From contig CAZOGI010000010.1 in the NCBI GenBank assembly GCA_964579435.1, positions 23,583 to 87,582 on the forward strand: a DNA stretch of 64,000 bases, in the 5' to 3' direction. Positions within the stretch are counted from its first letter, which is position 1, and each line of letters begins with the position of its first letter. The notes under the pieces are model-generated. The model was given only the letters and a program-made list of their open reading frames with translations. It was not told the origin of the DNA and did no database searches. Positions 28,028-63,846 of the stretch are shown one piece after another. This DNA is from an uncultured Planctomycetales bacterium. GTDB taxonomy: Bacteria; Omnitrophota; Gorgyraeia; Gygaellales; Profunditerraquicolaceae. A program made the translations under genes and the position numbers.

Positions 28028-28049
28028 GCTCTTGCGCCATACGCACGCT

Positions 28050-29334: not shown

Positions 29335-29390
29335 ATCCCGTGCCCTGATGCTCTTGTGCACCGGTGCGCCTGGCTCTTATAACTGGTGTC

Positions 29391-29419: not shown

Positions 29420-29427
29420 ATAGACTT

Positions 29428-32466: not shown

Positions 32467-32482
32467 CCGCTCCTTTTCCCGC

Positions 32483-37456: not shown

Positions 37457-37475
37457 CGGGCCGTTTTGCGGCCGT

Positions 37476-37814: not shown

Positions 37815-38548
37815 TCCTCGCCTCCCGGGTTATCCGTTTTTCCTGCCGACACCAGCAACAGCGCCAAAGAGACTTTGGCCATGTAATACAACGCCCGCAA
37901 AGGGGTAATGCTCGAGCGGCCGCCGCAACGTCCCCGCATCGCCACCGGCACCTCAAGCACCCGGAAACCGCTCTTGAGCGCCAAAACCGTCGATTCCGGC
38001 TCCGGATAATCATCCGCATACTCCCGGGAAAAAAGCTCGACCACCTCACGCCTCATGAGACGCATACCCGAAGTCGGATCGGTTATCCAAACTCCGGTCC
38101 GCAGCCAGATCAGGCAGGACAGGAACCGGATACCGATCCTGCGCAGGAACGTGGAAGGATAGCCGCCTGCGGCACGGAAACGCGAGGCAATGACCATATC
38201 CGCACCCGCCTGCGAAGCGCGGCGGCACAGCAGCGCCGCCATCGCCGGGAGCGCCGCGGCGGGATGCTGTCCGTCGCCGTCAACCTGAACGAGGGCGTCA
38301 AATCCTTGGCGCAGGCAATAACGGAAACCCGTCTGCATGATCGCGCCGATCCCCATGTTGAAAGGCATCCGTAACACCGTAGCCCCGGCGGCACGGGCGG
38401 ACTCATCCGTCGCGTCCCCAGAAGCATCGTCGATCACCAGGACCTCGGCAGCCACGCCCGAACCCTTGACCTCGGCGATGACACCCCGAATGCTCTCTTC
38501 CTCGTTGTATGCGGGGACCACCGCCAGAACCCGCAATTGCTCACTCAT
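37811..38548 (-). CDS. glycosyltransferase family 2, polyprenyl-phosphate glycosyltransferase-like
   Basis: Track ORF trimmed to ATG 38548 (MSEQLRVLAVVPAYNEEESI). VLVIDDASGD and VDGDGQHP. Confidence 0.8.
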   Translation of the reverse strand: MSEQLRVLAVVPAYNEEESIRGVIAEVKGSGVAAEVLVIDDASGDATDESARAAGATVLRMPFNMGIGAIMQTGFRYCLRQGFDALVQVDGDGQHPAAALPAMAALLCRRASQAGADMVIASRFRAAGGYPSTFLRRIGIRFLSCLIWLRTGVWITDPTSGMRLMRREVVELFSREYADDYPEPESTVLALKSGFRVLEVPVAMRGRCGGRSSITPLRALYYMAKVSLALLLVSAGKTDNPGGEE

Positions 38549-47084: not shown

Positions 47085-47752
47085 TCCCCGCCCACAACGA
47101 AGAGGGCACGATCCGGACGCTCCTGGAAAGAACCCGGGAGTTTCTCGGCGGAACCGGGGAATGCGAGATCATTGTGGTCGATGACGGCTCAAGCGATAAA
47201 ACCGCAGAGCGGGTGCAGAAACTGGCGGCATCGATCCCGACGATACGGCTCCTGCGTCTTTCTCCCCGCAGAGGGCAGGGGATGGCGCTTGCCGCCGGGA
47301 TTGCTGCCGCACAGACCGGCATCATCGTCACGATGGATGCCGACCTGCAGAACGACCCGGCCGATATCCCGGCCCTGCTTGAGCGTCTCGAAAACGGCTT
47401 TGACGTTGTCTGCGGCTGGCGCAAAAACAGGAAAGACCCGTTCGTAAAACGAATAAAATCCCGGGTCGCCAACCTCTTGCAACGCCTTTTGCTCGGCGTT
47501 AAACTGCATGATATGAGCTGCACCCTGCGCGCCTACCGGCGGGAGGCGCTCGAAGGGATCGAATTCGGGCGGGGGTATGATTTTTCGCTCCTGCCGTACC
47601 TGATCGCGCGCCGCAAAGCCATGCGCATCTGCGAGGTCCCGGTCAGCCACGAGCGCCGGCACAGCGGCACCTCCAAATACGGGTTTTGGGGGACCTGCGC
47701 CGGGACATTCGTCAGTTTTGTGCGCTGCGTTGCAGCGCGACCGCATAAATGA
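47066..47752 (+). CDS. glycosyltransferase family 2, polyprenyl-phosphate glycosyltransferase (ArnC/GtrB/DPM1 type)
   Basis: Track ORF 46373 trimmed to ATG 47066. CSIVIPAHNEEGTI...IIVVDDGSSDKT...MDADLQNDP...CTLRAYRREAL. Confidence 0.85.
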   Translation: MRCSIVIPAHNEEGTIRTLLERTREFLGGTGECEIIVVDDGSSDKTAERVQKLAASIPTIRLLRLSPRRGQGMALAAGIAAAQTGIIVTMDADLQNDPADIPALLERLENGFDVVCGWRKNRKDPFVKRIKSRVANLLQRLLLGVKLHDMSCTLRAYRREALEGIEFGRGYDFSLLPYLIARRKAMRICEVPVSHERRHSGTSKYGFWGTCAGTFVSFVRCVAARPHK

Positions 47753-47799
47753 GGCGTGACCATCTAGAAACAAGAGACCTGGGTCAGGAAACATGCACA

Positions 47800-49704
47800 A
47801 TGCAAGGATACCCCATGACTGATCGCCGATTCAACCTTTTCATCAGCTTCGCCTGCCTGGCGCTCATCGCGCTCTCCTACGCCAACACTCTCAAGGCGGA
47901 TTTCCACTTCGACGATTTCGACAGCATCGTCAATGTCCCGGCGATCCGCAGCCTGACCAATTTCAAGGAGATATTCCGTCTCACCGAACGGCCGCTCGTC
48001 AACTACTCCTTCGCCGTCAACTACTTCTTCGGAAAACTCAACGTCACCGGATTCCATCTGGTCAATATCGGGCTCCACGCGCTCTGCACGCTGCTGGTCT
48101 TTTTCTTCCTGCGGGAATTGCTTGGCGTACCCCTGCTTAAGGAACGCTACAGCCAAAAGATTGGCCGGTGGCTCTCTGCGGGAAGCGCGTTTCTTTTTGC
48201 CGTCCATCCGGCCAGAGTGGAAGCGGTCACGTATATTACCGCCCGATCGGAGAGCATGGCGTCGGCTTTTTATCTGCTCTCCTGCCTTTGCTTCCTGAAA
48301 TCCCTCTCTGACATCAAGAGAGAGCGGCTCTTCCAAGCGGCGGCAATTGTAGCCAGCGCCATCGGCATGGCAACCAAGGAGATCGTCGCCACACTGCCGG
48401 CGTCCCTGCTGCTGCTCGATTATCTTTTTGTGTGCGCCGGGAATCCCGCCTGCCTGAAGAAACGCGCCCGGTTCCATGCCTCGATGTTCGCCACGATCGC
48501 CGTTACCGTTGCGCTGGTGCTCTATTCGGACAAATGGGGAGCAGCCGGACTGGGTAACCCGAACCTGCACACGCCCCTTCAACACGCCCTCAGTGGTTTG
48601 CGCGCGTACGTCTATTATCTGGCCCTTTTCATCTTTCCGGCACCCGGACGCCTTAACTTCGACACCGATTTTGCCCTCTCCCGCAGCTTCACCGAACCGC
48701 AGGTCCTCGGCGCAAGCCTCTTCATCGCCGCGGCACTTGTCTTGGCCCTGTACGAATCGCGCCGGTGCCCCTTGATCACCTTCGCGATCTTGTGGTATTT
48801 TCTCCTGCTTCTGCCGACCACCAGCTTCATTCCGATCGAAGACCTCGTCTATGAGCGCAGGATGTATCTGGCCGCGCTCGGGCCCGGGCTCATCACGCTC
48901 CTTGCCCTCGGGCCGCTTCCCCGACGCCTGCGCATCGGCATTCTGGCGCTGACAGTCGGGATCCTCTCCCTGTGGACCATCCAGCGCAACGCCATCTGGC
49001 GAACCGAATTCTCCCTCCTGAGCGATTCGCTCAAAAAATCTCCGTACAAAACCCGCACGCTTACGAATATGGGCATGTTTTACCTCACCAAACAACAGGA
49101 CTTAGCTGCTGCCCGCTCCTACCTTGCCAGGGCCTTGCACTACAACCCGGATGCGGCAAACAGCCTGCTGAATATGGGCGTGGTGCAGCTGTTGGAGAAC
49201 AATCTGTCCGGGGCAGAACAACTTTTCCGTAAATTGCTTTATCTCTTTCCGGACGCAACCGCCGGCTATGTCAACCTGGCGACCGTATACCGCCGCTCCG
49301 GCCGGCTCCGGGAAGCAGAAGAGCTTCTACGAACCGCAATCACCATCGAACCTTCCTTCGCGGAAGCGTACGGGAATCTGGGCGTTATTCTGGCAAGCAA
49401 AAGAGAATTTGAGGAAGCCGAAAAGGCGCTTATTAAATCAATCGCTCTGAATCCCGATCTGCCTGAGCCGCACCATAGCCTGGGGCTCATCTATCAGAAG
49501 AGGGGTGACCATAAAAACGCTATCACTCAATTCCAGAGAGCCGTCACTTTGCAGCCTCAATTTTCAAAGGCTCTTTACAGCATGGGCATCTCGTACCTGG
49601 CGCTTGGAGATAAAGAAAAAGCAGAGGAGACGTATGCGAAGCTCCTGAAAATCAATCTTGATCTGGCGCTAAACTTGTTGTCCAGGATTGAGTTAAGACT
49701 TTAG
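47800..49704 (+). CDS. TPR-repeat GT-C glycosyltransferase-like protein (TMTC/DUF1736-type)
   Basis: Track ORF 47749 trimmed to ATG 47800. TM1 then FHFDDFD, about 10 TM helices, and a C-terminal TPR array. Paralogue of 34685-37456. Confidence 0.7.
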   Translation: MQGYPMTDRRFNLFISFACLALIALSYANTLKADFHFDDFDSIVNVPAIRSLTNFKEIFRLTERPLVNYSFAVNYFFGKLNVTGFHLVNIGLHALCTLLVFFFLRELLGVPLLKERYSQKIGRWLSAGSAFLFAVHPARVEAVTYITARSESMASAFYLLSCLCFLKSLSDIKRERLFQAAAIVASAIGMATKEIVATLPASLLLLDYLFVCAGNPACLKKRARFHASMFATIAVTVALVLYSDKWGAAGLGNPNLHTPLQHALSGLRAYVYYLALFIFPAPGRLNFDTDFALSRSFTEPQVLGASLFIAAALVLALYESRRCPLITFAILWYFLLLLPTTSFIPIEDLVYERRMYLAALGPGLITLLALGPLPRRLRIGILALTVGILSLWTIQRNAIWRTEFSLLSDSLKKSPYKTRTLTNMGMFYLTKQQDLAAARSYLARALHYNPDAANSLLNMGVVQLLENNLSGAEQLFRKLLYLFPDATAGYVNLATVYRRSGRLREAEELLRTAITIEPSFAEAYGNLGVILASKREFEEAEKALIKSIALNPDLPEPHHSLGLIYQKRGDHKNAITQFQRAVTLQPQFSKALYSMGISYLALGDKEKAEETYAKLLKINLDLALNLLSRIELRL

Positions 49705-49950: not shown

Positions 49951-52900
49951 ATGAAGAGCTTACCGACAAAGAAATTTTTCCGCACTTTTCTCATCCTGGG
50001 GATAACGACGCTCCTGTGCGCAACCCCGCATGCCCTTGCCGCAACCCGTTTCTATTTCGACGCCTCAACCGCAGCAGATGTCACTGCCTCCTATGACGCC
50101 GGCTGGGAATACCAATCCGAGGCAGGCCGCTACAAACTCAACAGGACCAAAGGCTCCTCCGCAATAACCATCGGCACCCAGATCGGCCCCTGGACCGCCG
50201 GCAGCGCCAACCAGGCCCTTGACCGCCAGTACATAAGCGATCCGATCGAAGCCCAGACCATAAGCGGCACGGTCAAAGGCCAGGTCATGTCGCGTGAATA
50301 CAACACCAGCGATAACGTGAACCGGATGTACATCACGGTCAAAGTCGTCTCCAACGACGGTTCCAGCGTGCGGGGGACACTCCTTGCCCTCAATACCTAT
50401 TACACGAATGCCGAACTGATCAGCAACGTAACCCACCGCAACGCCATCCTTGCCAATTCCGACACCGTCACCAACGTCACCGCGCAGCAGGGCGACCGCA
50501 TCCTCATCGAGATCGGCTTCGGCAGCTCGACAACCCAGACCACGCCCGAAGGCTCCTGCAAATGGGGGGAGAATGCATCCGACCTCCCGGAAAACGAAAC
50601 CCAAACAACCGACGGTGCGGGGTGGTTTGAGTTCTCCGCGGATATCACTTTCTATACTCCGCCCAAACCGCAATTCACCCAGAAAGCCTACCAGTGGGAG
50701 AATGACGATTCAACCTCAGGCGTCAACGCCAATTCACAGGCAGCCGAAGACAATACCGCCCTTACCGACGTGCGCATCGGACAGCGCCTCACCTGCAGGA
50801 TGCAGGTCGAGAACGACTCAACCGCCGCATCGAGCGACACCGTCTATCAGCTGCAGTGGGAGAACAACACCGATAACCCCGGGCGCTGGTTCCCGGTCGG
50901 CTACGGGACGCAGATCTCGTACGCAACCGGGCTCGCCGGCTTAAGCGGCGCCTCAACCGGCACCACCGCGCTCTGCGGAACCCCCACGTACACCATGGTC
51001 GCCGGCACCTGGCAGTCAGGGACGAGCCAGAACCCGCCCCACTCCATGGAGACGCAGCGAAGCGCGGAATTCTCTTTTGTCATCGACACCGCCAACGCAA
51101 AAGAAAATAAAGTCTATCGCCTGCGCCTCTTCGACAAAACAAACGCCCAGGCTTTCAATGCCTACACCGTCTATCCGCAGCTGACCACCGTCACCGCCGC
51201 CAACAACACCCTGCGCTACAGCAAAGAGCCACTCGATGCGGTGCAGAACACCTGGCGCATGGCCTCCTATCTGGACGAAACCGGCTATGACAACAGCGCC
51301 TCGGATAACTCGGTTTACGATTCGCTCCCCGCCCGGCGGCTTGCCCTTCGTGCGCAAGCCGACCTGACCTTTACCTCATTCGATGTTTCGCAATACCCGA
51401 CCTCGCAGATGGCCGTAGGCGTGGGAGACTTCAACAACGACGGCTACAACGACCTGCTCATGGGCGGCCAGCGCTACGCGACCTATGTCGGCCGGGCATA
51501 CCTTTATCTCGGCGGCAGCCCGATGGACAGCGTCTGTGACCTCACCATGCAGGCCGGTGCCCTCTACACCAATTCTTATTTCGGCTCCGCGGTCGCGGTC
51601 GGAGATATCAACAACGACAGTTTCGACGACGCCGTGGTCGGCAACTGGGGGTATTACCGTATGTACCTCTACTACGGCTCCACGACCATGAACAACGTCA
51701 TCGACATGACCTTTACCGGCGAAGCGACGAGCGACTACTACGGCTATTCGATCGGCATCAACGACGTCAACGGCGACAGCTTCAAGGATATCGTCACCAA
51801 CGCCCAGTGGTGGAATAACGGCCAGGGAAGACTCTACGTCTATTACGGCGGCACCACGATGAACAATGTTTGTGACCTGACGATAAACGGACAGGGAGGG
51901 GTGCACAACTATCCCGGGTTCGCCTGCGTCGTCGAAGACGTCAACAACGACAGTTTTGCCGACATACTCGTCAGCTCTCCCTACTACTACTATTCGGACA
52001 TGCGCGGCAGGGCATGGCTCTGGTACGGCGGAAACCCGATGGATGCCACCTGCGACAAGACCTTTACCGGAGAGACAACGGGCTCCTATTTCGGCGCTTC
52101 GGGATTATCGATCGGCGAAGTCAATAACGACGGCTTTAAGGACATCCTTATCGGAGCCTACGTCTACAGCTCCACGAAGGGCCGATCGTATCTTTTTTAT
52201 GGAGCGACCGGCACGAGCATGGATATAACCGCTGACAAAACCATCACCGGGAACGCGGGAGACTATCAGGGACAGGGAGAGCAGATCGTCGACGTCAATA
52301 ACGACGACTACGCTGACCTGGTCATCGGCGCCGATGCCTTCGGCAACAGCAGGGGAGTGGTCAAGATTTACTACGGCGGCGCCGACATGGACATCGTCGA
52401 AGACCTCAGCATCGCCACGGGCCAGACAGGCAACTATTTTTCCCAATCGGTCAATACGGGCGACCTGAACAACGACGGGGCCGCTGACCTGATCATCGGA
52501 GCCAACAGCTATCCGAGCCTCACCTACCAGGGCCGCGCCTGGGTTTATTACACCAAACCCCTCTTTGCCCCAACCCAGATCTTCGCCAAAAAGAACACCA
52601 ACAACACCGATTACATCGCCTTTGCCTGGAAAGGCAAAACCGACATGGCCGCAACTTCCGACAACATCATCGTCGAGGCTGCCCAGCAGACGGCGATGGA
52701 TGGCACTAACGACGAGACATTCACCGGAGAAGCGGGGAGCAATTTTTTCAGCAACTGTATCGCGCTTGCCGATTTCAACAACGACCATTACCAGGACCTG
52801 GTGCTGGGCGCCGACGGCTACAACAGCAACCAGGGCCGCGCCTATCTCTACTACGGCGGCACCGGCATAGTCGACACCGCCGCGGCACTTACGTTTAATT

Positions 52901-55900
52901 GTCCGGACACCGGCACCAATTATTTTGCGGGAGGCGGCTGGACCGTATCAACCGGGGACGTAAACGGGGACCTTTATGCCGACCTGCTCCTGGGGGCCGT
53001 CGGCTATAACACGAACATGGGCCGGGCTTTCCTGTACTTAAGCAAGCGCTTCGGCCTCATGGACGGCAGCCCTGACCTGACGCTCACCAGCCCGGCGACC
53101 GGCACAAACTCTTTCGGCAGGAACGCCGTCGGAGACGTCAACGGCGACGGTTTTGCCGATATGCTTATCGGTGCGCCCAGCTACGACACCAATAGGGGCC
53201 GGGTATACCTCTACTACGGCGCCTCAACTCCCGACGCCACTGCTGACCTGGTCCTCGCCGGCGAGACAACCGGAACCTATTTCGGCGACCGGATTGCGGT
53301 CAGTGACGTGAACGGCGATTATTTCTCGGACGTGCTGGTTATGGCTTATGCCTATGCCTCGACCCGCGGCAGGGCATACCTCTATTACGGCGGCACGACC
53401 ATGGATGCCACCTGTGACAAGACCTTTACCGGAGAAGCATCAAACACCAATTTCGGCCGCAGCGGCGGCATCGGCGATATCGATAACGACGGCTACGGCG
53501 ACGTCGTCATCGGGGCCAACCTGTACGCAACAAGCAGCGGCCGCGCCTATCTGTTCTGGGGCGCCACCAACATGGATGTCACCTGCGACAAAACCTTCAC
53601 CGGCGAAACAGCAAGCATACAGTTCGGCCAGGATGTCAGCATTTCCGACCTCAACGCCGACTCCTACGGGGATCTGGTCGTCACCGCCTACACCTGGAAC
53701 ACCAGCCAGGGCCGCGCCTATGTCTACAAAGGCGCCAGCCAGGCCTCCTTTGATACGACCTGTGACCTCACCTTAAGCGGCCTCACCACTACCGACAACT
53801 ACGGACGGGCCGCCCGCTCAGGCGATGTCAACAACGACGGATTCGCCGACCTGGTCGTCGGCGCCTACAATTACAACAGCGGACGCGGCCGGGCGTACCT
53901 CTATTACGGCGATACCGTCTCCTGGGTGACCCAGGCAACCGAAAGTTCCCTGGCAGCAGACACCCCCGGATGGATATACGCGTTCATCGATACCGACCCG
54001 AACCTCTATTACACGCCGGATAACTGGACGTATTGGCGGGTCTATCAGGCTCCGGGACAAGATACCAAAATTCTGGATATCGATTACGTGCAGTTCGACT
54101 TCCAGGCAACGGCGGTCAAGCTCATCTCTTTCTGGGCATTCGGCAAGGACGAAGAGGTCCAGGTCAGATGGGAAACCGCCTCTGAATCGCAGAACCTGGG
54201 CTTCAACCTCTACCGCTCGACATCCTCCGACGGAACTTACACCAAGATAAACGCAGGGATCATCTCCGGCCTCGGCAGCTCGCTGACCGGCAAAGAATAC
54301 TCCTTTACCGACGCCGATGTCTCAAACGGCCGCACCTACTACTACAAGCTGGAATCGATCGAGTTCACCGGCACCCGCGTCATGCACGGCCCCATCGAAG
54401 CGCATCCCGGGCTCGATGCCGACTCAGACGGCATGAGCGACGACTGGGAGGCGCATTACGGGCTCAACAGCGCTGACGCCTCGGACGCAGGGGCAGACCG
54501 CGACAGCGACGGACTGACGAATCTGCAGGAATACACCCTGGGCACCGACCCGACCCGCTCGGGCCAGGTAAGCGCAGGCGCAAGCGGCAGCGGCGGGCTC
54601 ACCGTCGTCTCCAGCGACTCAACCGGCATCACCCTGGAACTGCGCACCCCCGGGATCGAAAGCCGCACCGTCACCGTCAACAAACAAGCGTATCAATCCC
54701 TGAGCATCCCTGCCTATGCGCACGGCTATACGGCCATAAGCGCAAGCGCGCGCATGCCGGTCAAGCCGGTGATGCTTGCCCTGCCGCCCAATGCCGGCTG
54801 TTCCGTAGAAATCCTCAGCGAAGAGACGGAGATCTTCAGTAATTATACGGTAGAGCCGGTTACCACCTACACCCTGGAAGCGGATGCCAACGAAGAAGCG
54901 CTGCAATCGGGAGGCTTCGGCAAAACAGGACCGCTCGAGATAACGGTCGATCCGGCCGCGATCAACACCGTCTTCTATCAGCAGGACAGCAGCTATCCCG
55001 GGGAGCGCGCCGAGGTCGAATGGGTGGGAGATCTGCGCTCTCAGCGTATCGCCTGCCTGCGCCTGGCGCCGCTGCGCTTCAACCCGGCAAAGAAGGAGCT
55101 GACGATCTCCAAAGTCCTGCGCGTGCGGGTCACCTTTACCCAGGGAGGCGCTGCATCGGGAAACTGGCAGCTCTCCGAAACGGCCAAAAACGCGCGCATC
55201 AAGATCAAAACCGAAGGAGGCGGCATCCGCCGGCTTACCTGGACCGACCTGTATAACGCCGGCCTCACCGACGTGATCTGGTCCGACCCGCGACTCCTTT
55301 CCATGACCAACCTCGGCACGGAAATCGCTATCCGCGTCAAAGGCGAAGAGGACGGGATCTTCAATTTCGACGATTACGTGGAATTTTACGCCCGGGAAAT
55401 ACCGGCGCATTACGATGGATCGAGCCCCTACGCCGCGTATGCAAAATACTCTCCCCACAATGTTTACTTTTTGGGCTTTGGATCCTCCAACGGCAAACGC
55501 ATGGAGACGCGCGAAAGCAGCGCCAATGAAGGAAGCGTCTCGCCCGCGCGCTTCCGCCACACCGCCACCTTCGAGCAGAACGATTTTTACTGGAGCACCC
55601 GGGCGGGAGGGGAGCACGCAGACCGCTGGTTCTGGTCGCCTGCCCTCTGGGAAGACACGAGCCAGGAATACGCGCTGAACCTGCCCCATGTCGATGTCGA
55701 CAGCGCCGCCGAGACGGCAAGCGTCTCTTTGGTGTACTACCCGCTCCTGTACCTGCCGCAGCCCAGCGAAACCGCCAAAGCGACCGTCGCCCACGAAACA
55801 AGCGCAACCCTCAACGGCGTCTCCCTCGGCAGTGACACCTGGCAGGGCATGCAGGAACGCACCATCGAGGCGGAAATCGCACACGCCAGCCTTATTACCG

Positions 55901-57924
55901 GAAGCAACACCCTCAAGCTCGCGCACAAGAAAGTATCGCCTGCCGAGCACGACGCTCTTATCGCCAATTATTGCACGATCACCTACTGGCACACATTTGA
56001 GGCGGATTCGGACGCGCTCTCCTTCTCCTGCGCGAGCGAAACAGGGGACACCGCCGCATTCACGGTCACCGGCCTGACGACCCAGGAATGCTCTGCTTAC
56101 GATATTACCGATCCTGCCCAGCCGGTCGCCTTTTCCGGGCTCTCCGCGGTTTTCGACCCCGGAACCAACACCTACTGCGTTTCCTTCAAAGACGATATCC
56201 CGGCGGCGCAGGAGCGCCGTTATCTGGTGCTGGCCGACGCGCAAAAGACAGCCCCCGCGGCCCTTTCCTTCGTTGCCGCGCCGGCGCTTGACCTGAGCCT
56301 CGCCGGCAACCACGCCGATTACCTGATCATCACTCATTCCTCTTTTTCGGACGCCCTGGAGCCCCTCAAAAACCTGCACACCGCCCAGGCACTCGACGTG
56401 CAGATCATCGACATCGAAGATATCTATAACGCCTTCGCGTACGGGTTCCCGACGCCGCAGGCGGTCAAGGACTTCGTCAGCTACGCCTACGCGAACTGGA
56501 AAGGGCTCTGCCAAAAAACCTCGCCGCCCCGGGTCATGGCCCCGACGTACGTGCTCCTCGTCGGAGACGCCCACTACGATTACCGCGACAATCTCGGGAC
56601 CGGGCGCAGCATCTATGTGCCGACCTACCTCATTGCGGATCAACCCAATATCGGCGAGACCGCATCCGACAACTGGTTCGCCTGCATGGGGGGACAGGAG
56701 GATACCCTTGCGGATCTCTTTATCGGAAGGCTGCCGGTCAGGACAAACCAGGAGTGCCAGGCGGTAGTCTCCAAAACAATCGCCTACGCGGCACAGGAGG
56801 CCGGGGGAGCGTATACGCGGGCAACCTTCCTGGCCGATGTCGGCAGCGAATTCGAGCAGACCTGCGAGAGCCTCTCCGGCAAACTCTCCGCCGAAGTAAC
56901 CGGGCAAAAACTCTATTTGTCGGACTACCCCAGCGCCGCCTCGTTCGTCTCCGGACTCATCTCCTCCGTCAACAGCGGGACGCTCCTCTTGACCTATGTC
57001 GGCCACGCCGCAACCTATCTCTGGACCGCCGACGGCTCATTCGACACCGACTCCGTCGCCTCTCTGAACAACACCGCCGCCTTCCCGCTGGTCGTTTCCC
57101 TCGACTGCCTCGACGGCTACTTTATCAACCCCCAGGAACAGTACGAATCCCTCGCCGAGACCTTCCTGCGCAAATCCGGCTCCGGCGCCGTCGCCTGTTT
57201 CTCGCCCTCGGGCATGGGCATGCCGTCAAGCCATCTCATACTCGGCACCTATTTCTATAAAGCGCTCTTTGAGAGCGGCTCAACCCATCTGGGACAGGCG
57301 GCAACCGAAGCAAAACTCAATTATTTCGCCAGCACCGGCGCCGCCGGGCTGGACTTGGTGCATACCTATAACCTCTTGGGGGACCCGGCGCTCGCCCTGA
57401 AGATCCCGGCCGCTGCGTCCCAGACCGGCCAGACCGCCGTGACGACGACTGCCGCCGCGACAACTCAAACCGCAACAGAATCGGAATCCGCAACGACAAC
57501 GAGCGCGGAAACAGACGCCTTTACCTCGATCCTCGGCTCGGCGCTGGCCAACGTTGAAGAAGGCAAGAAATGGCGCGACGAAACCAAACAGGCCAAAGAC
57601 CCCCAGGACCCGGCAGAAACATCCGCGGAACCGCAGGGCGTCCTCGCGAAACTGCCGATCCCCAGGATCATCAAAGAGATCGTCAAGAAACAGAAGACGG
57701 CGCTGACGCAGCCAGCCGGCCAACCCGCGGCAACCGGTCTCACCCATGCGGATACCGCGCCGGAGGGAAGCGAATACGCTCAAGACGCAACAGTCCCGGA
57801 GCGTTCATCCGCCGTGCAGCAGAAATCCCCGCGCACGAATATCCTGCGCACCGTCATCGAAACAGTCTGGAAAGCTGTAGTCACCTTCTTCAAAAAACTC
57901 CTGGCCCTGATCCTGGGTAAATGA
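49951..57924 (+). CDS. giant secreted protein: 14 FG-GAP repeats (two predicted 7-bladed propellers) + TSP3-like acidic motif + peptidase C25 (gingipain-like) domain
   Basis: 2657 aa. Signal peptide ...LLCATPHALA. 14 D-x-N-x-D-x-x-x-D / GRAYLYYG units. DADSDGMSDDWE...DSDGLTNLQEYTLGTDP. C25-like ADYLIITH..., YVGHA (His codon 57004-57006), SLDCLDGYF (Cys codon 57106-57108). T/A/E-rich linker and a hydrophobic C-terminal tail. Confidence 0.9.
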   Translation: MKSLPTKKFFRTFLILGITTLLCATPHALAATRFYFDASTAADVTASYDAGWEYQSEAGRYKLNRTKGSSAITIGTQIGPWTAGSANQALDRQYISDPIEAQTISGTVKGQVMSREYNTSDNVNRMYITVKVVSNDGSSVRGTLLALNTYYTNAELISNVTHRNAILANSDTVTNVTAQQGDRILIEIGFGSSTTQTTPEGSCKWGENASDLPENETQTTDGAGWFEFSADITFYTPPKPQFTQKAYQWENDDSTSGVNANSQAAEDNTALTDVRIGQRLTCRMQVENDSTAASSDTVYQLQWENNTDNPGRWFPVGYGTQISYATGLAGLSGASTGTTALCGTPTYTMVAGTWQSGTSQNPPHSMETQRSAEFSFVIDTANAKENKVYRLRLFDKTNAQAFNAYTVYPQLTTVTAANNTLRYSKEPLDAVQNTWRMASYLDETGYDNSASDNSVYDSLPARRLALRAQADLTFTSFDVSQYPTSQMAVGVGDFNNDGYNDLLMGGQRYATYVGRAYLYLGGSPMDSVCDLTMQAGALYTNSYFGSAVAVGDINNDSFDDAVVGNWGYYRMYLYYGSTTMNNVIDMTFTGEATSDYYGYSIGINDVNGDSFKDIVTNAQWWNNGQGRLYVYYGGTTMNNVCDLTINGQGGVHNYPGFACVVEDVNNDSFADILVSSPYYYYSDMRGRAWLWYGGNPMDATCDKTFTGETTGSYFGASGLSIGEVNNDGFKDILIGAYVYSSTKGRSYLFYGATGTSMDITADKTITGNAGDYQGQGEQIVDVNNDDYADLVIGADAFGNSRGVVKIYYGGADMDIVEDLSIATGQTGNYFSQSVNTGDLNNDGAADLIIGANSYPSLTYQGRAWVYYTKPLFAPTQIFAKKNTNNTDYIAFAWKGKTDMAATSDNIIVEAAQQTAMDGTNDETFTGEAGSNFFSNCIALADFNNDHYQDLVLGADGYNSNQGRAYLYYGGTGIVDTAAALTFNCPDTGTNYFAGGGWTVSTGDVNGDLYADLLLGAVGYNTNMGRAFLYLSKRFGLMDGSPDLTLTSPATGTNSFGRNAVGDVNGDGFADMLIGAPSYDTNRGRVYLYYGASTPDATADLVLAGETTGTYFGDRIAVSDVNGDYFSDVLVMAYAYASTRGRAYLYYGGTTMDATCDKTFTGEASNTNFGRSGGIGDIDNDGYGDVVIGANLYATSSGRAYLFWGATNMDVTCDKTFTGETASIQFGQDVSISDLNADSYGDLVVTAYTWNTSQGRAYVYKGASQASFDTTCDLTLSGLTTTDNYGRAARSGDVNNDGFADLVVGAYNYNSGRGRAYLYYGDTVSWVTQATESSLAADTPGWIYAFIDTDPNLYYTPDNWTYWRVYQAPGQDTKILDIDYVQFDFQATAVKLISFWAFGKDEEVQVRWETASESQNLGFNLYRSTSSDGTYTKINAGIISGLGSSLTGKEYSFTDADVSNGRTYYYKLESIEFTGTRVMHGPIEAHPGLDADSDGMSDDWEAHYGLNSADASDAGADRDSDGLTNLQEYTLGTDPTRSGQVSAGASGSGGLTVVSSDSTGITLELRTPGIESRTVTVNKQAYQSLSIPAYAHGYTAISASARMPVKPVMLALPPNAGCSVEILSEETEIFSNYTVEPVTTYTLEADANEEALQSGGFGKTGPLEITVDPAAINTVFYQQDSSYPGERAEVEWVGDLRSQRIACLRLAPLRFNPAKKELTISKVLRVRVTFTQGGAASGNWQLSETAKNARIKIKTEGGGIRRLTWTDLYNAGLTDVIWSDPRLLSMTNLGTEIAIRVKGEEDGIFNFDDYVEFYAREIPAHYDGSSPYAAYAKYSPHNVYFLGFGSSNGKRMETRESSANEGSVSPARFRHTATFEQNDFYWSTRAGGEHADRWFWSPALWEDTSQEYALNLPHVDVDSAAETASVSLVYYPLLYLPQPSETAKATVAHETSATLNGVSLGSDTWQGMQERTIEAEIAHASLITGSNTLKLAHKKVSPAEHDALIANYCTITYWHTFEADSDALSFSCASETGDTAAFTVTGLTTQECSAYDITDPAQPVAFSGLSAVFDPGTNTYCVSFKDDIPAAQERRYLVLADAQKTAPAALSFVAAPALDLSLAGNHADYLIITHSSFSDALEPLKNLHTAQALDVQIIDIEDIYNAFAYGFPTPQAVKDFVSYAYANWKGLCQKTSPPRVMAPTYVLLVGDAHYDYRDNLGTGRSIYVPTYLIADQPNIGETASDNWFACMGGQEDTLADLFIGRLPVRTNQECQAVVSKTIAYAAQEAGGAYTRATFLADVGSEFEQTCESLSGKLSAEVTGQKLYLSDYPSAASFVSGLISSVNSGTLLLTYVGHAATYLWTADGSFDTDSVASLNNTAAFPLVVSLDCLDGYFINPQEQYESLAETFLRKSGSGAVACFSPSGMGMPSSHLILGTYFYKALFESGSTHLGQAATEAKLNYFASTGAAGLDLVHTYNLLGDPALALKIPAAASQTGQTAVTTTAAATTQTATESESATTTSAETDAFTSILGSALANVEEGKKWRDETKQAKDPQDPAETSAEPQGVLAKLPIPRIIKEIVKKQKTALTQPAGQPAATGLTHADTAPEGSEYAQDATVPERSSAVQQKSPRTNILRTVIETVWKAVVTFFKKLLALILGK

Positions 57925-58745
57925 CAACCCGTCTTTTTTGCATCGAAATAGCCGATTATCCCTTCGGCATAGAAGCGCCCGAACCCCTCTGGGGCGCATT
58001 TCAGGAAACCTATCTGCCGTTCCTGAGCGCCCGGGAGCCGCGCTACCGCATCCGCGCCGAGATCGACCCCACCGCGCAACCCGTTGACCTCTGGGAGGGG
58101 ATGACCCTGGATAAGACGACGCTCTCGATCAGCGATGACACCTCGAGTGCGCGTTTCGATTTCAAGACAAAAGAAGGGACGATCCGCCTGAACCCCGCCA
58201 GACTCCTGGTGCCGTTGGGCGCCTTCCTGCGCAATATCGTCACTGTGCTCTTGAGCCTCCAGGATGACGGCCTCCTGATGCATGCCTGCGGGGTCCTGTA
58301 CGAAGAGGAAGCATTCCTCTTCACCGGGCGTTCCGGCGCCGGAAAAACGACGGTATCGCGCGCGCTCGCCCATTTGCCGACGATCTCCGACGATCTTTTG
58401 CTGGTCAAGCCCACCCCCGGAGGATTCGGCGTCTGGCCGCACCCGCGCTGGGGAGACCGCCAGAGCGGATCATTCCAAAACCGGCCGCACCGGATCAGCA
58501 GTATTTACCTCTTGTGCCAGGATACCGGGGTTTTCGTGAAAAGGCTCGGCCCGGCCCGGGCCACCGCGCACCTCTTGACCGTTCCGCACGTCCCCGTCAA
58601 CCGCATCCCCGCCGCGCGCATCCTGGAAAGCACCCAACGCCTGGCGGAGACGGTCCCGGTGTACGAACTGCACTTCCGGCCCGACCCGTCGTTCTGGGAA
58701 AAGATACTGCAGGAGAGAGAAAGGATTGTCGCTGCATGGAAATGA
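57921..58745 (+). CDS. HPr kinase-related (HprK-like) P-loop kinase
   Basis: 274 aa. ATGA overlap with the giant gene stop. MHACGVLYEEEAFLFTGRSGAGKTTVSRAL...ISDD aligns with the HprK C-terminal catalytic core. Confidence 0.7.
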   Translation: MTTRLFCIEIADYPFGIEAPEPLWGAFQETYLPFLSAREPRYRIRAEIDPTAQPVDLWEGMTLDKTTLSISDDTSSARFDFKTKEGTIRLNPARLLVPLGAFLRNIVTVLLSLQDDGLLMHACGVLYEEEAFLFTGRSGAGKTTVSRALAHLPTISDDLLLVKPTPGGFGVWPHPRWGDRQSGSFQNRPHRISSIYLLCQDTGVFVKRLGPARATAHLLTVPHVPVNRIPAARILESTQRLAETVPVYELHFRPDPSFWEKILQERERIVAAWK

Positions 58746-59017
58746 AATCAGCAATCCCGTTCAAGAACGAGAAGACCGCTTCCCGCATCATCCAGGACCA
58801 GGCCGTGATCGTCATCCTGGAAAACCAGGAGACGGTGGTCCTCAACGAGAGCGCCTCGCGCATCTGGGAACTAAGCGACGGGAAACGCACGCTCGGGGAA
58901 ATCGCCCGCATACTGGAAGAGGAATTTTCGGTATCCGCGCAAACCGCCCTGCAGGACGCCGCCGCCTTCCTGGGCGAAGCGGAAGGCAAGGGGATCTTTT
59001 CACTCAACCGCCCATGA
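58742..59017 (+). CDS. PqqD-family protein (stand-alone RiPP recognition element-like)
   Basis: Track ORF 58514 trimmed to ATG 58742 (ATGA overlap); ATG 58736 is an alternative. VVLNESASRIWELSDGKRTLGEIARILEEEFSV...AAFLGEAEGKGIF. Confidence 0.75.
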   Translation: MKSAIPFKNEKTASRIIQDQAVIVILENQETVVLNESASRIWELSDGKRTLGEIARILEEEFSVSAQTALQDAAAFLGEAEGKGIFSLNRP

Positions 59018-60036
59018 CCCCGACCGGCTTCACCGATATCTTTGCGCACAGCATGCGGCAGAACCTCTGCCTGATCGCGCACCTGGAGCTCACCCACGCC
59101 TGCAACCTGCGCTGCCGGCACTGTTACTGCGTCCCCGACGCGGACCGGCCGGAGTGCTCGTTCGGGGAAATCCGCTCGGTCCTGCGGCAGCTCAAAGAAG
59201 CGGGAACGCTCTTTTTGTGCCTCAGCGGAGGCGAACTGCTCTGCAGAGCGGACATCTTCGAGATACTCTCCTGCGCGCGCGCCGAAGGGTTCGCCCTGCG
59301 CCTGATGACCAACGGCACGCTCATCGACGAAACGGCAGCCGCGCGCATCGCAGCCGCAGCCGCGGTTACGGTCGACATGAGCATCTACGCGGCAAATCCC
59401 CGGCTGCACGACGCGGTGACGGGAAAACCCGGATCGTTGCACCTGACCCTGCAGGCAGCAGCGCTCCTGAGGGAACGGGGGATACGCGTCGTGTTCAAGT
59501 TCATCGTCATGAAAGACACCGTCGGGGAATTCAAAAACATCCGCGCGCTCTGCCAAGAGAGAGGGATCGATTTCATCTACGACGTCTGCCTGGTCGAGCG
59601 CACCGACGGCGACGCCCGGCCGCTGCAGTACCGCCTGGACAAAGAAGGAATCAAATCGTTCCTGCGCCGGAACGCGCTGTCTCCCGCGGCATCGCCCGAC
59701 GGGTCGGTTTTGTGCACCGCCGGACTCAACAACATCTTCATCTCTCCGCAGCTGGACGTCTATCCCTGCATCGGCATCCGTGAAAAGATCGGCTCCCTGC
59801 GCCAAGGTTCCCTGAAGGACATCTGGGAATCCGCGCCGCTGCTGCGGAGGCTGCGCACCCTCACCGATGCCGAACTGAACGCCTGCTCTTCCTGCGCGAA
59901 GCGCGCCTACTGCTTCCGCTGCGCCGGCCTGGCGCTGGAAGCGTCAAACGACCTCTGCGCCCGCTCGCCGTTCGACTGCGAAGTTGCCCAGGCGCTCGCG
60001 GAAACCGCACAAAGAGAAAAGGAGACCGTCCTATGA
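59014..60036 (+). CDS. radical SAM enzyme with C-terminal SPASM domain (peptide-maturase type)
   Basis: Track ORF 58726 trimmed to ATG 59014 (ATGA overlap). LELTHACNLRCRHCY. C-terminal Cys array CTAG...YPC...CSSCAKRAYCFRCAG...C...C. Confidence 0.85.
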   Translation: MTPTGFTDIFAHSMRQNLCLIAHLELTHACNLRCRHCYCVPDADRPECSFGEIRSVLRQLKEAGTLFLCLSGGELLCRADIFEILSCARAEGFALRLMTNGTLIDETAAARIAAAAAVTVDMSIYAANPRLHDAVTGKPGSLHLTLQAAALLRERGIRVVFKFIVMKDTVGEFKNIRALCQERGIDFIYDVCLVERTDGDARPLQYRLDKEGIKSFLRRNALSPAASPDGSVLCTAGLNNIFISPQLDVYPCIGIREKIGSLRQGSLKDIWESAPLLRRLRTLTDAELNACSSCAKRAYCFRCAGLALEASNDLCARSPFDCEVAQALAETAQREKETVL

Positions 60037-60194
60037 ACAAGAAAAATCAACCCGCCGCGAAACGACCGTACACCAAACCCGCTATCGCCTTCAGCAAAAA
60101 GATCGAGATCATCTCCGCGGTATGCGATTCCGGCTTCGGCGGACTGAGCAACTGCCGCAAATCATCGACGCCCTGCCTGCGTTCCCGGGCCTAA
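60033..60194 (+). CDS. 53-aa candidate precursor peptide (not in the supplied ORF track)
   Basis: ATG 60033 overlaps the rSAM stop (ATGA), with GGAG 8 nt upstream. Translation: MNKKNQPAAKRPYTKPAIAFSKKIEIISAVCDSGFGGLSNCRKSSTPCLRSRA. GC3-rich codons. Three Cys and several Ser/Thr lie in the C-terminal 23 residues. Confidence 0.55.
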   Translation: MNKKNQPAAKRPYTKPAIAFSKKIEIISAVCDSGFGGLSNCRKSSTPCLRSRA

Positions 60195-60207: not shown

Positions 60208-61824
60208 GTGGACCGTTCAGACCCCGAGACCGTCTCGCTCTCGCTGGTACGCGACAGCCTCAATGTCCGCGGCGGGACGATCACCCTCACGATCGCCGGA
60301 TCCTGCATGTCGCCGCTGATCCGGGCAGGAGACCGCGTCACCATACGATCGGTTTCTTTCGCTGAACTCACTCCCGGCGACATAATCGCCTTCCAGGACC
60401 GCAACCTGCTCTACGCGCACCGCCTGACCGGCAAAGATCCCCGCACGCAGAATCTGCACACCCAGGCGGACCGGTCATGGCAGACGGACATCGCGTTCTC
60501 CTTTTCCCAGGTGTTGGGAAAAGTGACCGCCGTCTCGAAACAGGGCAGGACCCTGCATCTTGACCGCTTCCCCGGCCGGCAGATCAACCGTGCCTATGGC
60601 GCCTGCCGCCGCCTGCTTCAGGCGATCACGCTCCCCGCGCGAGCGGCGCATGAGGCCCTGCGCCGGAGGCAGGGGACAGAGGAGCGGCAAGCACTCTTTG
60701 CGGTTGTCTCTGTCGCCAGCCGCGGCTTTCTGGAGACCCCGTTCCCGCTGCCGGAGCGCATCGATGAGCCCCTCTTTGGGGAACAGGCGCGCGCCCAAAC
60801 ACTGGCACCCTGGTGCTTTTGCGTACTGCGCGATCGGCAGCGCGACCACGATGTTTTTTCTCCCACTCTGCGCGAAACGCTCAGGCTCGAATATTACGAA
60901 ACCTTTTCCCTGAATGCCCAATCCCTCCCCGGGACACAGGAACTCTTCGCTCACCTGCGCGCCCAGGAGATCGGATTCCTCGTCTTCAAAGGCCTGGTGC
61001 TGGCCCAGGGCGTCTATGCGGATATCGGAGCGCGCCGCCTGGGAGACACCGATATCCTCATCAGAAGGGAGGACCTCTCCCGTCTCGACCGGGTCCTGCG
61101 CGAGAGAGGCTTTCGTTGTCCGGTTCCCCTCACGGCAGTCCCGGAGGCGCCCAACGCGTACCGCAATGCGCTGCTGTATTTGCCTCCCGACGGATCCCTG
61201 CAGAGACCGCTGCATGTGTACTGGCACTGGGTCAATCTCGCCGCGTTTTCCCGGCGCCTCCCCGGGTCGATACGGATGGAACGGATCTGGCAGGACCGCA
61301 TCAAGGTCGACATCGCCGGCATCTGCCTGGAGACGTTCTCCTGGGAACATCACCTCATCTACCTGTCCATGCACGCGCTCGCCCATTCCTATTTCCCGCT
61401 CAGCACCCTTATCGACATCGCCGGGCTGCTGACGAAACGCCGAAAAGACCTCGAGTGGAACGGCATCCTCAAAGACGCCCAGACCTTCGGCCTGGAGCGG
61501 CCGCTCTTGCTTGCCCTCACCCTGGCCCGGGAGATCTGCTCCGCCCCGGTTCCCGCCGCGGCGTTAAGCCGGCTACGGCCAACCCGCCTGAGCTTATTCG
61601 AAAGACGCTTCATCGCAGACGCGCAGCGGTTACGGCTGAAAACGGGAAAAGAGTGGCTCCTTTACCTGGGCATGAACGACACGCCGCTTGAGCGCCTCGA
61701 TTTTATCCTCCGCGCGCTTTTTCCGCCCGCGCACCTTCTTGCCCTCATCCGCCAGCAGCCGCGCGCCGCCCTCGCCGCATCGTACGGGAAACGCCTGGTC
61801 GCGGCAATGCGCAGCGCCTCCTAA
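60208..61824 (+). CDS. fusion protein: S26B (SipW/Sec11)-like signal-peptidase domain + NTP_transf_5-type nucleotidyltransferase
   Basis: 538 aa with GTG start. N-terminal IAGSCMSPLIRAGDRV...GDIIAF...YAHRL...ADRSWQTD...LGKVTAV follows the ER-type SPase pattern. Central KGLVLAQGVYADIGARRLGDTDILIRREDL nucleotidyltransferase motif. Confidence 0.7.
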   Translation: MDRSDPETVSLSLVRDSLNVRGGTITLTIAGSCMSPLIRAGDRVTIRSVSFAELTPGDIIAFQDRNLLYAHRLTGKDPRTQNLHTQADRSWQTDIAFSFSQVLGKVTAVSKQGRTLHLDRFPGRQINRAYGACRRLLQAITLPARAAHEALRRRQGTEERQALFAVVSVASRGFLETPFPLPERIDEPLFGEQARAQTLAPWCFCVLRDRQRDHDVFSPTLRETLRLEYYETFSLNAQSLPGTQELFAHLRAQEIGFLVFKGLVLAQGVYADIGARRLGDTDILIRREDLSRLDRVLRERGFRCPVPLTAVPEAPNAYRNALLYLPPDGSLQRPLHVYWHWVNLAAFSRRLPGSIRMERIWQDRIKVDIAGICLETFSWEHHLIYLSMHALAHSYFPLSTLIDIAGLLTKRRKDLEWNGILKDAQTFGLERPLLLALTLAREICSAPVPAAALSRLRPTRLSLFERRFIADAQRLRLKTGKEWLLYLGMNDTPLERLDFILRALFPPAHLLALIRQQPRAALAASYGKRLVAAMRSAS

Positions 61825-61914: not shown

Positions 61915-63846
61915 ATGCCGCAATACGATTTCAACCTTCGCGATTATTTCCGGATCTTCCGCAAACGCAAGCTCGTCATCATCCTGACCTTTCTTCTGGT
62001 TTGTGCCGTCAGCTATGCCTTTCTTTCCACCCAGCCGACCGTCTATCAGGCCGATTGCACCGTCAAGATCGAAGAGCGCAAGACCATCGCCGGGCTCCTG
62101 ACCGAATGGATCATGTACAATCCGGGCGATGTCATGGAATCCCAGACCAAGATCATCCGGGGGTTCCCGATCATGCGCCAGGTCGCCCTGCGCCTGAAGC
62201 TCATCGACCAGAACAGCTCGGAGGATCAGATAAACGAAGCGGTGAACCGGCTCCAGGACCAGGTCGAGACCGAGCGTATCGAGTCGACCAACATGATCAA
62301 GATCAAGACCTCTTCCGCATCGCCCGACGAAGCGATGAACCTGGCCAATACCGTCGCCGAGGTCTATATAGAAGAGAACCTCACCGAAAAAGCCAAACAG
62401 GCACGCCACGTGCGCCAGTTCATCCAGGACCAGCTCTCGGGGCTTGACTCCCGACTCAAGGAATCAGAAGAGAAACTCAAGGAATTCGGGACCGGTACCG
62501 ACGTCAAATTTGCCGCGCCCATCGAACAGAAACTCATCGAGCTGGAATTCCAGCGCGCGGAACTCCTGCAGAAATACACCGAAAAACACCCTCTGGTCAT
62601 CCAGATCCGCGAACAGATCAAAGAGCTCCAGCAACGGGTCAGCGATTACAGCGGCCAGGAGCTGGAGTACGCGCGGCTGACCCGGGAGATCGATGTCAAT
62701 AAGAAGCTCTACGCCATACTCAAGGAAAAGCTCGAAGAGGCGCGCATAACCGAGGCACAGAAGGTCGGCGACATCTCGATCGTCAACCCGGCCTTTTTGC
62801 CGACGACGCCGCTTTCCGGGAACAAACAACTCAAATTTCTCATCGGCGCCTTCCTCGGGCTCCTGCTGGGACTGACCTTCGCCTTCGTGACCGAAACCCT
62901 GGACACCTCCATCGCCACGATCGAGGACGTCGAATCGGTGATCAAGCTGCCGGTCCTGGGGGTCGTGCCTTCCTTCGAATCCGCGGCCCAGGAAGACCGC
63001 AGCATGCTCGACGAAATAAAAGAGCTCTTCCGGGGGAAAAAACGCACGCCGAGCGAAGAAGCCGCGATCCGGCTCATCGCGCACTATAAGCCGCAGTCGC
63101 CGATAACCGAGGCCTACCGCAACATCCATACCAACCTGAAACTGGACCAGAGCAAGAAGACGATCCTCATCACCAGTTCCAACCCGCAGGAAGGCAAGAG
63201 CAGCGTCGTCTGCAACCTGGCCATCGTCATGTCGCAGCTGGGGCTTAAAACCCTGATCATCTCCTCAGACCTGCGCCGTCCCGTGCTCTCCAAAACCTTC
63301 GGGATCCCGCGCGAACCGGGGCTCAGCGAGCTTGCCATGGGTACGGCGACCCTGGACCAGGCCCTCTACAGCATCACCGACATCCTGCTGGGGACCCTCA
63401 AGATCGAAGACATCCAAAAGACCCGCGGCATCGACAATATCTGGATCATCCCCTCGGGGAGCATGGTCACCAACCCCGTGGAGATCATCGAATCCGCCAA
63501 GCTGCAGGAGATCGTCGAGGCCGCCAAGAAACGTTTCGATTTCATCATCTTCGATTCCCCGCCGGTCCTTCCCGTCACCGACGCCAGCCTCCTGGCGCCG
63601 AAAATGGATTGCGTCATCATCGTCTACGAGATCGGCCGCACCAGCCGTGAAGCGCTCCTGCGCACCAAGATCCAGCTGGAAACCGTCGGCGCGCGTATAA
63701 CCGGGATCGTGCTCAACCATACCAAGCCCCAGACCGAAGCCCTGGCGACCTATCCCTACAATTACCGGTACAAATACCGCTACTATGACGAAGAGCACCA
63801 GAAGAAGCAGGGAGGGTTTTTCAAAAAGGCGCGCAAGAGAAGCTAA
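61915..63846 (+). CDS. polysaccharide co-polymerase (Wzz domain) fused to BY-kinase tyrosine autokinase
   Basis: 643 aa. N-terminal TM + coiled-coil Wzz region. Walker A SSNPQEGKSS, A-prime ISSDLRRP, Walker B IIFDSPPV. C-terminal Tyr cluster YPYNYRYKYRYYDEE. Confidence 0.9.
   Translation: MPQYDFNLRDYFRIFRKRKLVIILTFLLVCAVSYAFLSTQPTVYQADCTVKIEERKTIAGLLTEWIMYNPGDVMESQTKIIRGFPIMRQVALRLKLIDQNSSEDQINEAVNRLQDQVETERIESTNMIKIKTSSASPDEAMNLANTVAEVYIEENLTEKAKQARHVRQFIQDQLSGLDSRLKESEEKLKEFGTGTDVKFAAPIEQKLIELEFQRAELLQKYTEKHPLVIQIREQIKELQQRVSDYSGQELEYARLTREIDVNKKLYAILKEKLEEARITEAQKVGDISIVNPAFLPTTPLSGNKQLKFLIGAFLGLLLGLTFAFVTETLDTSIATIEDVESVIKLPVLGVVPSFESAAQEDRSMLDEIKELFRGKKRTPSEEAAIRLIAHYKPQSPITEAYRNIHTNLKLDQSKKTILITSSNPQEGKSSVVCNLAIVMSQLGLKTLIISSDLRRPVLSKTFGIPREPGLSELAMGTATLDQALYSITDILLGTLKIEDIQKTRGIDNIWIIPSGSMVTNPVEIIESAKLQEIVEAAKKRFDFIIFDSPPVLPVTDASLLAPKMDCVIIVYEIGRTSREALLRTKIQLETVGARITGIVLNHTKPQTEALATYPYNYRYKYRYYDEEHQKKQGGFFKKARKRS

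Follow-up and report, generated by a model that had tools for sequence, protein, structure and literature searches.

A predicted cytoplasmic Sec11-like peptidase domain with cysteine in the nucleophile position, fused to a nucleotidyltransferase in a candidate peptide-maturation cassette

To our knowledge, the peptidases of clan SF (families S24 and S26) are regarded as enzymes that use serine exclusively. LexA, UmuD and lambda cI (S24) and LepB and SpsB (S26A) use a Ser-Lys dyad, the S24 proteins cleaving themselves and the S26A enzymes being anchored in the membrane, while SEC11A/C, yeast Sec11 and SipW of B. subtilis (MEROPS S26B) have a His instead of the Lys as general base. An engineered cysteine form of E. 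coli LepB (S90C) reportedly retains activity, which would make a natural Cys form plausible. Here, we describe a fusion open reading frame (ORF) of 538 aa from an uncultured Planctomycetales bacterium (GTDB phylum Omnitrophota; GCA_964579435.1, contig CAZOGI010000010.1, positions 23,583 to 87,582), found in a stretch of 64,000 nucleotides that is called the window below. Its N-terminal domain has the fold, the boxes B, D and E and the His base of the S26B enzymes, and it differs from them by a Cys (Cys33) in place of Ser, the lack of a membrane anchor, model scores below cut-off, the fusion to an NTP_transf_5 domain, and a cassette like those of peptides that are ribosomally synthesised and modified post-translationally (RiPPs) instead of secretion housekeeping. 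What appears new, judged from sequence comparison, is a member with Cys as its putative nucleophile in a Sec11-like family that is uncharacterised and predicted to be cytoplasmic. We consider it probable (roughly 0.6) that the domain is an active, cytoplasmic leader peptidase with a Cys-His-Asp triad, guided by a RiPP recognition element (RRE) to the precursor peptide that is encoded upstream.

The cassette has likenesses in several described peptide systems. In lasso leaders, a Y-x-x-P-x-Φ motif is read by PqqD-type recognition elements. The window shares with the lasso machinery the YxxPxΦ leader, a stand-alone PqqD-like protein (B1) and a putative dedicated cytoplasmic leader peptidase (the counterpart of B2). 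However, this peptidase has an S26B-like fold and is not a transglutaminase-type Cys protease, the cassette contains no lasso cyclase, and a radical S-adenosylmethionine (SAM)/SPASM enzyme would act on a Cys-rich core. The pair of an HprK-related P-loop protein and a nucleotidyltransferase-like enzyme resembles the lasso tailoring enzymes PadeK/PsmK and PsmN. For pseudomycoidin, the HprK-family kinase PsmK phosphorylates the C-terminal Ser, and PsmN, annotated as NTP transferase and dependent on its D134/D136 pair, is needed for the hexose on the phosphate (PMC6993621). The SynChlorMet cassette, an in-silico definition of NCBIfam/TIGRFAMs (SCM; ScmC TIGR04249, ScmE/F TIGR04250/1, PF27840), likewise combines an ScmC-like P-loop protein, PqqD and radical SAM/SPASM enzymes, but the window proteins score far below its equivalog cut-offs (ScmC 23.8 vs 125, ScmE 100.7 vs 400 and ScmF 74.3 vs 400 bits) and the window cassette has one radical SAM gene, not two; it is related but not equivalent to SCM. 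As far as we know, the published SCM definition includes no S26B-like peptidase, NTP_transf_5 partner or precursor family. Two further comparisons concern the peptidase domain. SipA of S. pyogenes is without the catalytic residues, while in the window domain the exchange of Ser for Cys is the only departure from the full set, and the NiSOD (nickel superoxide dismutase) maturation protease (TIGR02754) gives weak matches (E=6e-6 to 3e-3) and belongs to a system without RiPP enzymes.

Relatives of the N-terminal domain were collected with phmmer (aa 1-133 against 1.84 billion cluster representatives, E<=1e-3), and 2,575 representatives were returned. Most of them stand alone, are 140-200 aa long and lack the membrane anchor that true signal peptidases have at the N-terminus. 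When a profile of 71 members was compared with all PDB sequences, the best matches were the human proteins SEC11C (at E=4e-12) and SEC11A (at E=3e-11), and the boxes B (SM.P), D (HR) and E (GD...D) were in register. The top NCBIfam match in every family member tested is TIGR02228 (sigpep_I_arch). The window protein itself stays below the cut-offs both of this model (E=4e-6, 26.6 bits against 51.85) and of Peptidase_S24 (PF00717) in Pfam (aa 19-85, E=0.009, 16.1 bits against 23.3). Judged from these profiles, the family is a large, unnamed branch of the S26B (Sec11/SipW-type) peptidases. Together with the NTP_transf_5 match (Table 1), the similarities go far beyond what chance would give.

The structure was modelled with AlphaFold2 from aa 1-133 and an alignment of 71 sequences. 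This domain model (mean predicted local distance difference test, pLDDT, 90.3) is the only one used, and a model of the whole protein from the single sequence (pLDDT 37) was useless and was discarded. The domain model superposes on SipA (13.6), LexA (11.8), E. coli signal peptidase I (11.0) and the SEC11 chain 7p2q_A (9.3), and Foldseek agrees. The domain has the clan SF (LexA/signal-peptidase) fold; an earlier, sequence-only reading of this DNA had proposed a superposition on SipW, Sec11 and LepB as a check.

The catalytic register follows from two alignments. Aligned pairwise with SpsB of S. aureus, Cys33 falls on the nucleophile Ser36, which is Ala in the 4wvg mutant, while the Lys that serves SpsB as general base is matched by His71. 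In SEC11A, a Ser56/His96/Asp122 triad and an Asp116-Arg97 salt bridge have been established experimentally (bioRxiv 10.1101/2020.11.11.378711), and Ser56, His96, Asp122, Asp116 and Arg97 align with Cys33, His71, Asp94, Asp88 and Arg72 of the window protein. The alignment suggests that Cys33-His71-Asp94 replaces the usual Ser-His-Asp, with Asp88 bracing Arg72. Box B reads AGSCMSPLIRAGD. The His general base and the box E Asp residues of the S26B enzymes are present, and the Ser of box B is not. The ORF begins with a GTG codon, a start consistent with the N-termini of stand-alone homologues, and runs to the stop at 61824. The motifs that the sequence-only reading had picked out (box B, YAHRL, ADRSWQTD, LGKVTAV and GDTDILI) were all recovered at the positions it gave, and its assignment to the S26B type with a His box is borne out by the TIGR02228 match, the SEC11 profile alignment and His71-Arg72.

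The same reading had placed Cys in the nucleophile column and had proposed a survey of Ser versus Cys among homologues. We examined 266 members, of which 150 are the closest to the Cys-bearing query and 116 were selected by profile. The column holds Ser in 254 and Cys in 12 of them, and neither Ala, Gly, Thr nor anything else, so it is conserved as a nucleophile column, and with the SpsB and SEC11 alignments and with Met34, Pro36 and Gly41-Asp42 fixing the register, the placement of Cys33 holds. Met34, Pro36, His71, Arg72 and Gly104 are invariant (266 of 266), followed by Asp88 (264 of 266) and Asp94 (252 of 266). All 12 Cys variants keep His71, Arg72, Asp88 and Gly104, and most keep Asp94.

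The Cys variants are found more than once and are stable within the lineages that were sampled. Because the nearest relative of each of them in the set is a Ser variant, they appear to be scattered and not one clade, within the limited phylogenetic resolution at 37-55% identity. In two multi-member clusters Cys is retained: it is found in all full-length members of the P0029 cluster, whose member P0281 was read on 18 contigs including a 914-kb NCBI contig, and in the P0047 cluster (Thermodesulfovibrionia). Among 14 loci with a Ser nucleophile, 13 have an AGY codon and one (L019) has TCG, while in five loci with Cys the codon is TGY, one transversion from AGY. Cys is thus a one-step neighbour of the usual Ser codon and possibly a bridge between the two Ser codon classes. 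Cys variants lie in intact cassettes in L006, L007, L022, L024 and L025. A related-locus search that started from a narrower alignment used a Ser-only pattern and could not recover Cys variants.

By hydropathy, no hydrophobic segment precedes the core of the window protein, and a segment resembling a transmembrane helix was seen at the N-terminus in 8 of 277 sequences (hydropathy only), most of which are genuine SipW-like enzymes at the family margin. The median position of the nucleophile is residue 34 across the family. Since nearly all members and the window protein are without such a segment, the family is predicted to be cytoplasmic, and a thiol nucleophile would be compatible with the reducing cytoplasm. 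The designation "SipW/Sec11-type signal-peptidase domain" in the sequence-only reading therefore stands for the fold and the catalytic register and probably not for the function: signal-peptidase activity is unlikely for this family, because the membrane anchor is missing and the gene lies in a peptide-maturation cassette.

The genes of this cassette (Table 1) are tightly spaced, and ATGA overlaps at 57921-57924, at 59014-17 and at 60033-36 couple their translation. The P-loop protein has weak NCBIfam matches to ScmC (E=2e-5), HprK_rel_B (8e-4) and HprK_rel_A (6e-3), and it matches the ScmC-annotated proteins (PF27840) of L001, L004-L006, L008 and L018 (phmmer, E=1e-8 to 1e-16). The PqqD-like protein provides the RRE that is expected of a RiPP cassette, and the radical SAM/SPASM product matches ScmE/ScmF, PqqE and sactipeptide-maturase-like models of NCBIfam. 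Similar gene sets occur in related loci. L001-L005 contain a small ORF, an S24-like gene, ScmC (PF27840), PqqD and radical SAM/SPASM genes, with or without NTP_transf_5, and in L021 a radical SAM gene, a 56-aa ORF and an S24-like gene are followed by an overlapping NTP_transf_5-like gene. Cys-type S24-like genes are found in L006 (with NTP_transf_5, ScmC, PqqD and radical SAM), L007 (between ScmC and Wzz/AAA_31) and L022 (with ScmC, radical SAM, glycosyltransferases and PqqD). So far the cassette is seen in metagenome-derived sequences only, and the labels of the metagenome-assembled genomes (MAGs) include Acidobacteriota, Chloroflexota, Desulfobacterales/Desulfobacteraceae, Acidimicrobiia and Thermodesulfovibrionia.

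The likely substrate is the 53-aa precursor MNKKNQPAAKRPYTKPAIAFSKKIEIISAVCDSGFGGLSNCRKSSTPCLRSRA, in which a leader (KRPYTKPAI...KKIEIISA) is followed by the Cys-rich core VCDSGFGGLSNCRKSSTPCLRSRA. Homologous small ORFs adjoin the S26-like genes in most loci (L001, L004, L005, L008, L018, L021, L022, L024 and L025), and that of L024, beside a Cys-type peptidase, is 55% identical to the window precursor. They have a basic N-terminus in common; nine homologous ORFs share the motif K[KR]PY.KP.Φ and an E-Φ-x-[S/A]-[A/V/L]-x-C junction, and the 39-aa ORF of L025 also has YxxPxL. The cores vary, contain two or three Cys and often end with Ser. This is the arrangement of RiPP genes, in which a small precursor has a leader that is conserved and a core that is not. 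Type I signal peptidases follow a P1/P3 rule, with a small P1 and an aliphatic P3 residue. As the precursor junction fits this rule, with a small residue (S/A) and an aliphatic or beta-branched residue two positions earlier, cleavage is predicted two or three residues before the first core Cys.

The precursors of L001, L004, L005 and L008 mostly end with K-x-S or G-S, like the phosphorylation site of paeninodin-type lasso peptides. Short ORFs with a YxxP-type leader and a Cys-free core are also present, at 923-1042 (-) in L025 and at 7567-7674 in L022 (MNPKMTYEAPKLIKHQRLQKVTLATTPPPLNFPNALPGQ; ...KKYRKPTLTKYTNVKRVFGYET). Given these ORFs, and since no radical SAM gene was seen within the L025 locus, the chemistry is not uniform across the family.

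In the proposed order of events, the PqqD-like protein would bind the YxxPxΦ leader (KRPYTKPAI) of the precursor and the radical SAM/SPASM enzyme would cross-link the Cys-rich core. The HprK-like ScmC and NTP_transf_5 proteins would tailor the peptide, by phosphorylation and then by transfer of a sugar or a nucleotide onto the phosphate, in analogy to PsmK/PsmN. The S26B-like domain would cut off the leader within the E-Φ-x-[S/A]-[A/V/L]-x-C box, by means of Cys33-His71-Asp94.

Cys33 might instead mark a lost protease activity, the domain being a non-catalytic peptide-binding or chaperone module like SipA of S. pyogenes, which holds the precursor or another partner for NTP_transf_5. We regard this as unlikely, since such a module should lose further catalytic residues, whereas the Cys variants retain the other members of the site (Asp94 in most of them); Cys is a competent nucleophile and the sole alternative in the column, and leader binding is already supplied by the PqqD protein. 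Just as unlikely, in our estimate, is an active peptidase that works on something else, namely the Peptidase_C25 proteins before export or, in the manner of LexA, its own chain, so that NTP_transf_5 is released. Self-cleavage is known for the S24 relatives LexA and UmuD, and members of the family have Peptidase_C25 proteins as neighbours, both in the window and in L008, L012, L013, L015, L016, L017 and L025, some of these loci being without a radical SAM gene in view; the C25 gene of the window is moreover translationally coupled to the cassette. However, most members are short stand-alone proteins with about 20 residues before the core, so they lack a LexA-like cleavage-site region. The C25 proteins begin with a signal or anchor sequence of the ordinary kind and the S26-like enzyme is predicted to be cytoplasmic, so that different compartments are expected and direct processing of C25 proteins seems unlikely. 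A small ORF with the YxxP leader motif is present even in the C25-rich L025.

The TGC codon could also be an error of sequencing or assembly, or a recent and deleterious mutation of AGC (A to T) in this one genome. A single transversion would suffice, and the window protein is alone in its cluster, no close relative having been found in the databases that were searched. Against this, 11 further, divergent cluster representatives show the same replacement, Cys is conserved within two multi-member clusters that were sampled on many contigs, and it is also found beside a near-identical precursor type in L024; we regard an error or a recent mutation as very improbable. The neighbouring Ser32 as nucleophile, with Cys33 as a bystander, is the least credible. 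The sequence-only reading had noted this Ser, which does precede Cys33 in the window protein, and had considered a shifted active site. However, column 32 is variable among the 266 members (T97, S44, N34, G26, D16 and A13), Ser is found there in 4 of the 12 Cys variants with D, Q, G, H, R or A in the rest, and Met34, Pro36 and Gly41-Asp42 leave the register fixed on Cys33.

Several points weigh against the reading of the domain as a Cys-type leader peptidase. All 12 Cys variants come from the similarity-selected set (12 of 150) and none from the profile-selected set (0 of 116), so selection on a Cys-bearing query may have inflated the Cys fraction and the true frequency is uncertain. Box E of the window protein starts with AD (Ala87-Asp88, 60466-60471) and not with the usual GD. 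Ala87 is enriched in Cys variants (5 of 12 vs 8 of 254, p=8e-5) in a set selected by a query with both features; it may be a co-adaptation to Cys33, on which we do not lean in view of the sampling bias. The window precursor (60150-60194) ends with ...CLRSRA, without a C-terminal Ser, which weakens the kinase analogy, and the target of the ScmC-like protein may therefore be different in the window. L012, L013, L015, L017 and L025 have C25 neighbours and no radical SAM gene in view, and the conserved partner of the family may not be the small peptide alone. In addition, a literature search found no published study of the cassette or of a natural Cys-type S26 enzyme.

If the leader-peptidase reading is true, a recurring natural Cys-His-Asp form makes clan SF a clan with mixed nucleophiles, as the chymotrypsin-like proteases are, and gives a living example of a one-step Ser/Cys codon exchange, the Ser of this family being AGY. 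The domain is a marker of a large soluble Sec11-like family in a peptide-maturation cassette, and it would add to the RiPP leader peptidases a new type whose cut site can be predicted. More tentatively, and at a little under even odds, we suggest the following wider picture. Clan SF would include natural thiol enzymes, and the cytoplasmic S26B-like family would supply the leader peptidase, guided by the RRE, in a peptide-maturation system that is widespread and undescribed (HprK-like ScmC, PqqD, radical SAM and NTP_transf_5) and has genetic ties to giant surface proteins of the Peptidase_C25 type and to polysaccharide loci; the nucleophile of the family would have switched repeatedly between Ser (AGY) and Cys (TGY). 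The family also offers a link, open to test, that connects peptide maturation with gingipain-like surface proteins and with exopolysaccharide loci.

The C-terminal part of the fusion protein exceeds the Pfam gathering score for NTP_transf_5. Its D-x-D motif is intact, with the like motif type in P0002 and P0285, and by analogy GDTDILI may be equivalent to the D134/D136 pair of PsmN. A word-indexed homologue search with the full protein returned only the protein itself and one NTP_transf_5-only relative with 32% identity. The fusion had been called unusual; it is present, but it is not unique. Ser-type S26-like domains are fused to NTP_transf_5 in P0009, P0039 and P0040, and P0285 of the P0047 cluster continues into NTP_transf_5, apparently as a second, independent lineage of Cys and NTP_transf_5 fusion. 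The unfused genes are adjacent or overlapping in L006, L021 and L024, so the fusion brings together two enzymes whose genes normally lie side by side and often overlap.

Table 1. Features of the fusion ORF, its cassette and the Peptidase_C25 neighbours (positions in the window unless a related locus is named)
Feature	Position	Strand	Evidence or remark
Peptidase_C25 neighbours in related loci	L008 1-3779; L012 8658-10850; L013 8605-10770; L015 24-7913; L016 2094-6050; L017 51-1112; L025 1714-12874		
Giant secreted FG-GAP / Propeptide_C25 / Peptidase_C25 protein	49951-57924	+	ATGA overlap with ScmC-like gene
ScmC-like / HprK-related P-loop protein	57921-58745	+	Weak NCBIfam matches; Walker A GRSGAGKT at 58326-58349
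PqqD-like RiPP recognition element	58736-59017	+	PF05402 E=1e-15; stop overlaps radical SAM start
Radical SAM/SPASM maturase	59014-60036	+	PF04055 E=1e-20, PF13186 E=5e-8; CxxxCxxC from 59101
Precursor peptide gene, 53 aa	60033-60194	+	Good Shine-Dalgarno sequence (AGGAG); ATGA overlap with radical SAM stop
Fusion ORF, 538 aa (S26B-like peptidase domain, linker helices, NTP_transf_5 domain)	60208-61824	+	
Catalytic core, S26B-like (LexA/signal-peptidase fold) domain, aa 20-120	60265-60567	+	
Box B (G-S-C-M-S-P), nucleophile-position Cys33 (TGC)	60304-60306	+	Alignment with SpsB Ser36 and SEC11A Ser56
Box D, HR in YAHRL	60418-60423	+	His71 (60418-60420), predicted general base; Arg72, predicted salt-bridge residue
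Box E, ADRSWQTD	60469-60489	+	Asp88 (60469-60471), structural, pairs with Arg72; Asp94 (60487-60489), predicted third triad member
Gly104 in LGKV strand (LGKVTAV)	60517-60519	+	
NTP_transf_5 (PF14907), aa 188-443	60769-61536	+	Pfam E=5e-40, 138.1 bits against cut-off 31.2
GDTDILI, aa 279-285	61042-61062	+	Sequence; D-x-D motif for metal binding, as expected of Pol-beta-type nucleotidyltransferases
Wzz/GNVR chain-length determinant fused to BY-kinase	61915-63846	+	Pfam/NCBIfam; same neighbour after Cys variant in L007

Gingipain-like Peptidase_C25 proteins, often giant, stand beside the S26B-like gene in many MAGs that are unrelated to each other, whether the radical SAM cassette is present or not. 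Besides the window, the adjacency was seen at L008/L010, L012, L013, L015, L016, L017 and L025, the last of which has four C25 genes around its Cys-type peptidase gene. The association is too frequent to ignore.

The cassette also lies repeatedly inside polysaccharide-biosynthesis loci, at 21519-34717, 46083-47752 and 61915-63846 in the window, 2633-3646 in L006, 2020-4383 in L007 and 3037-5715 in L022. In the window, these genes encode Asn synthase, GT1/GT2/GT4 glycosyltransferases, an epimerase, a WecA-type transferase, Wzy_C and Wzz/BY-kinase, and beside relatives DegT, Wzz, GT2 and a hexapeptide transferase are found. The Asn_synthase gene (21519-23585) was considered as a lasso cyclase and rejected, as its GATase domains are intact and it is found at a distance of 36 kb, among the polysaccharide genes of the locus. 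Upstream, between tetratricopeptide-repeat (TPR) proteins and glycosyltransferases, there are three B12-binding radical SAM genes in a row (41869-46093). Large TPR-repeat proteins flank the locus at 34685-40769 (-) and 47749-49704, and a PMT_2 glycosyltransferase-like N-terminal domain is contained in 38541-40769.

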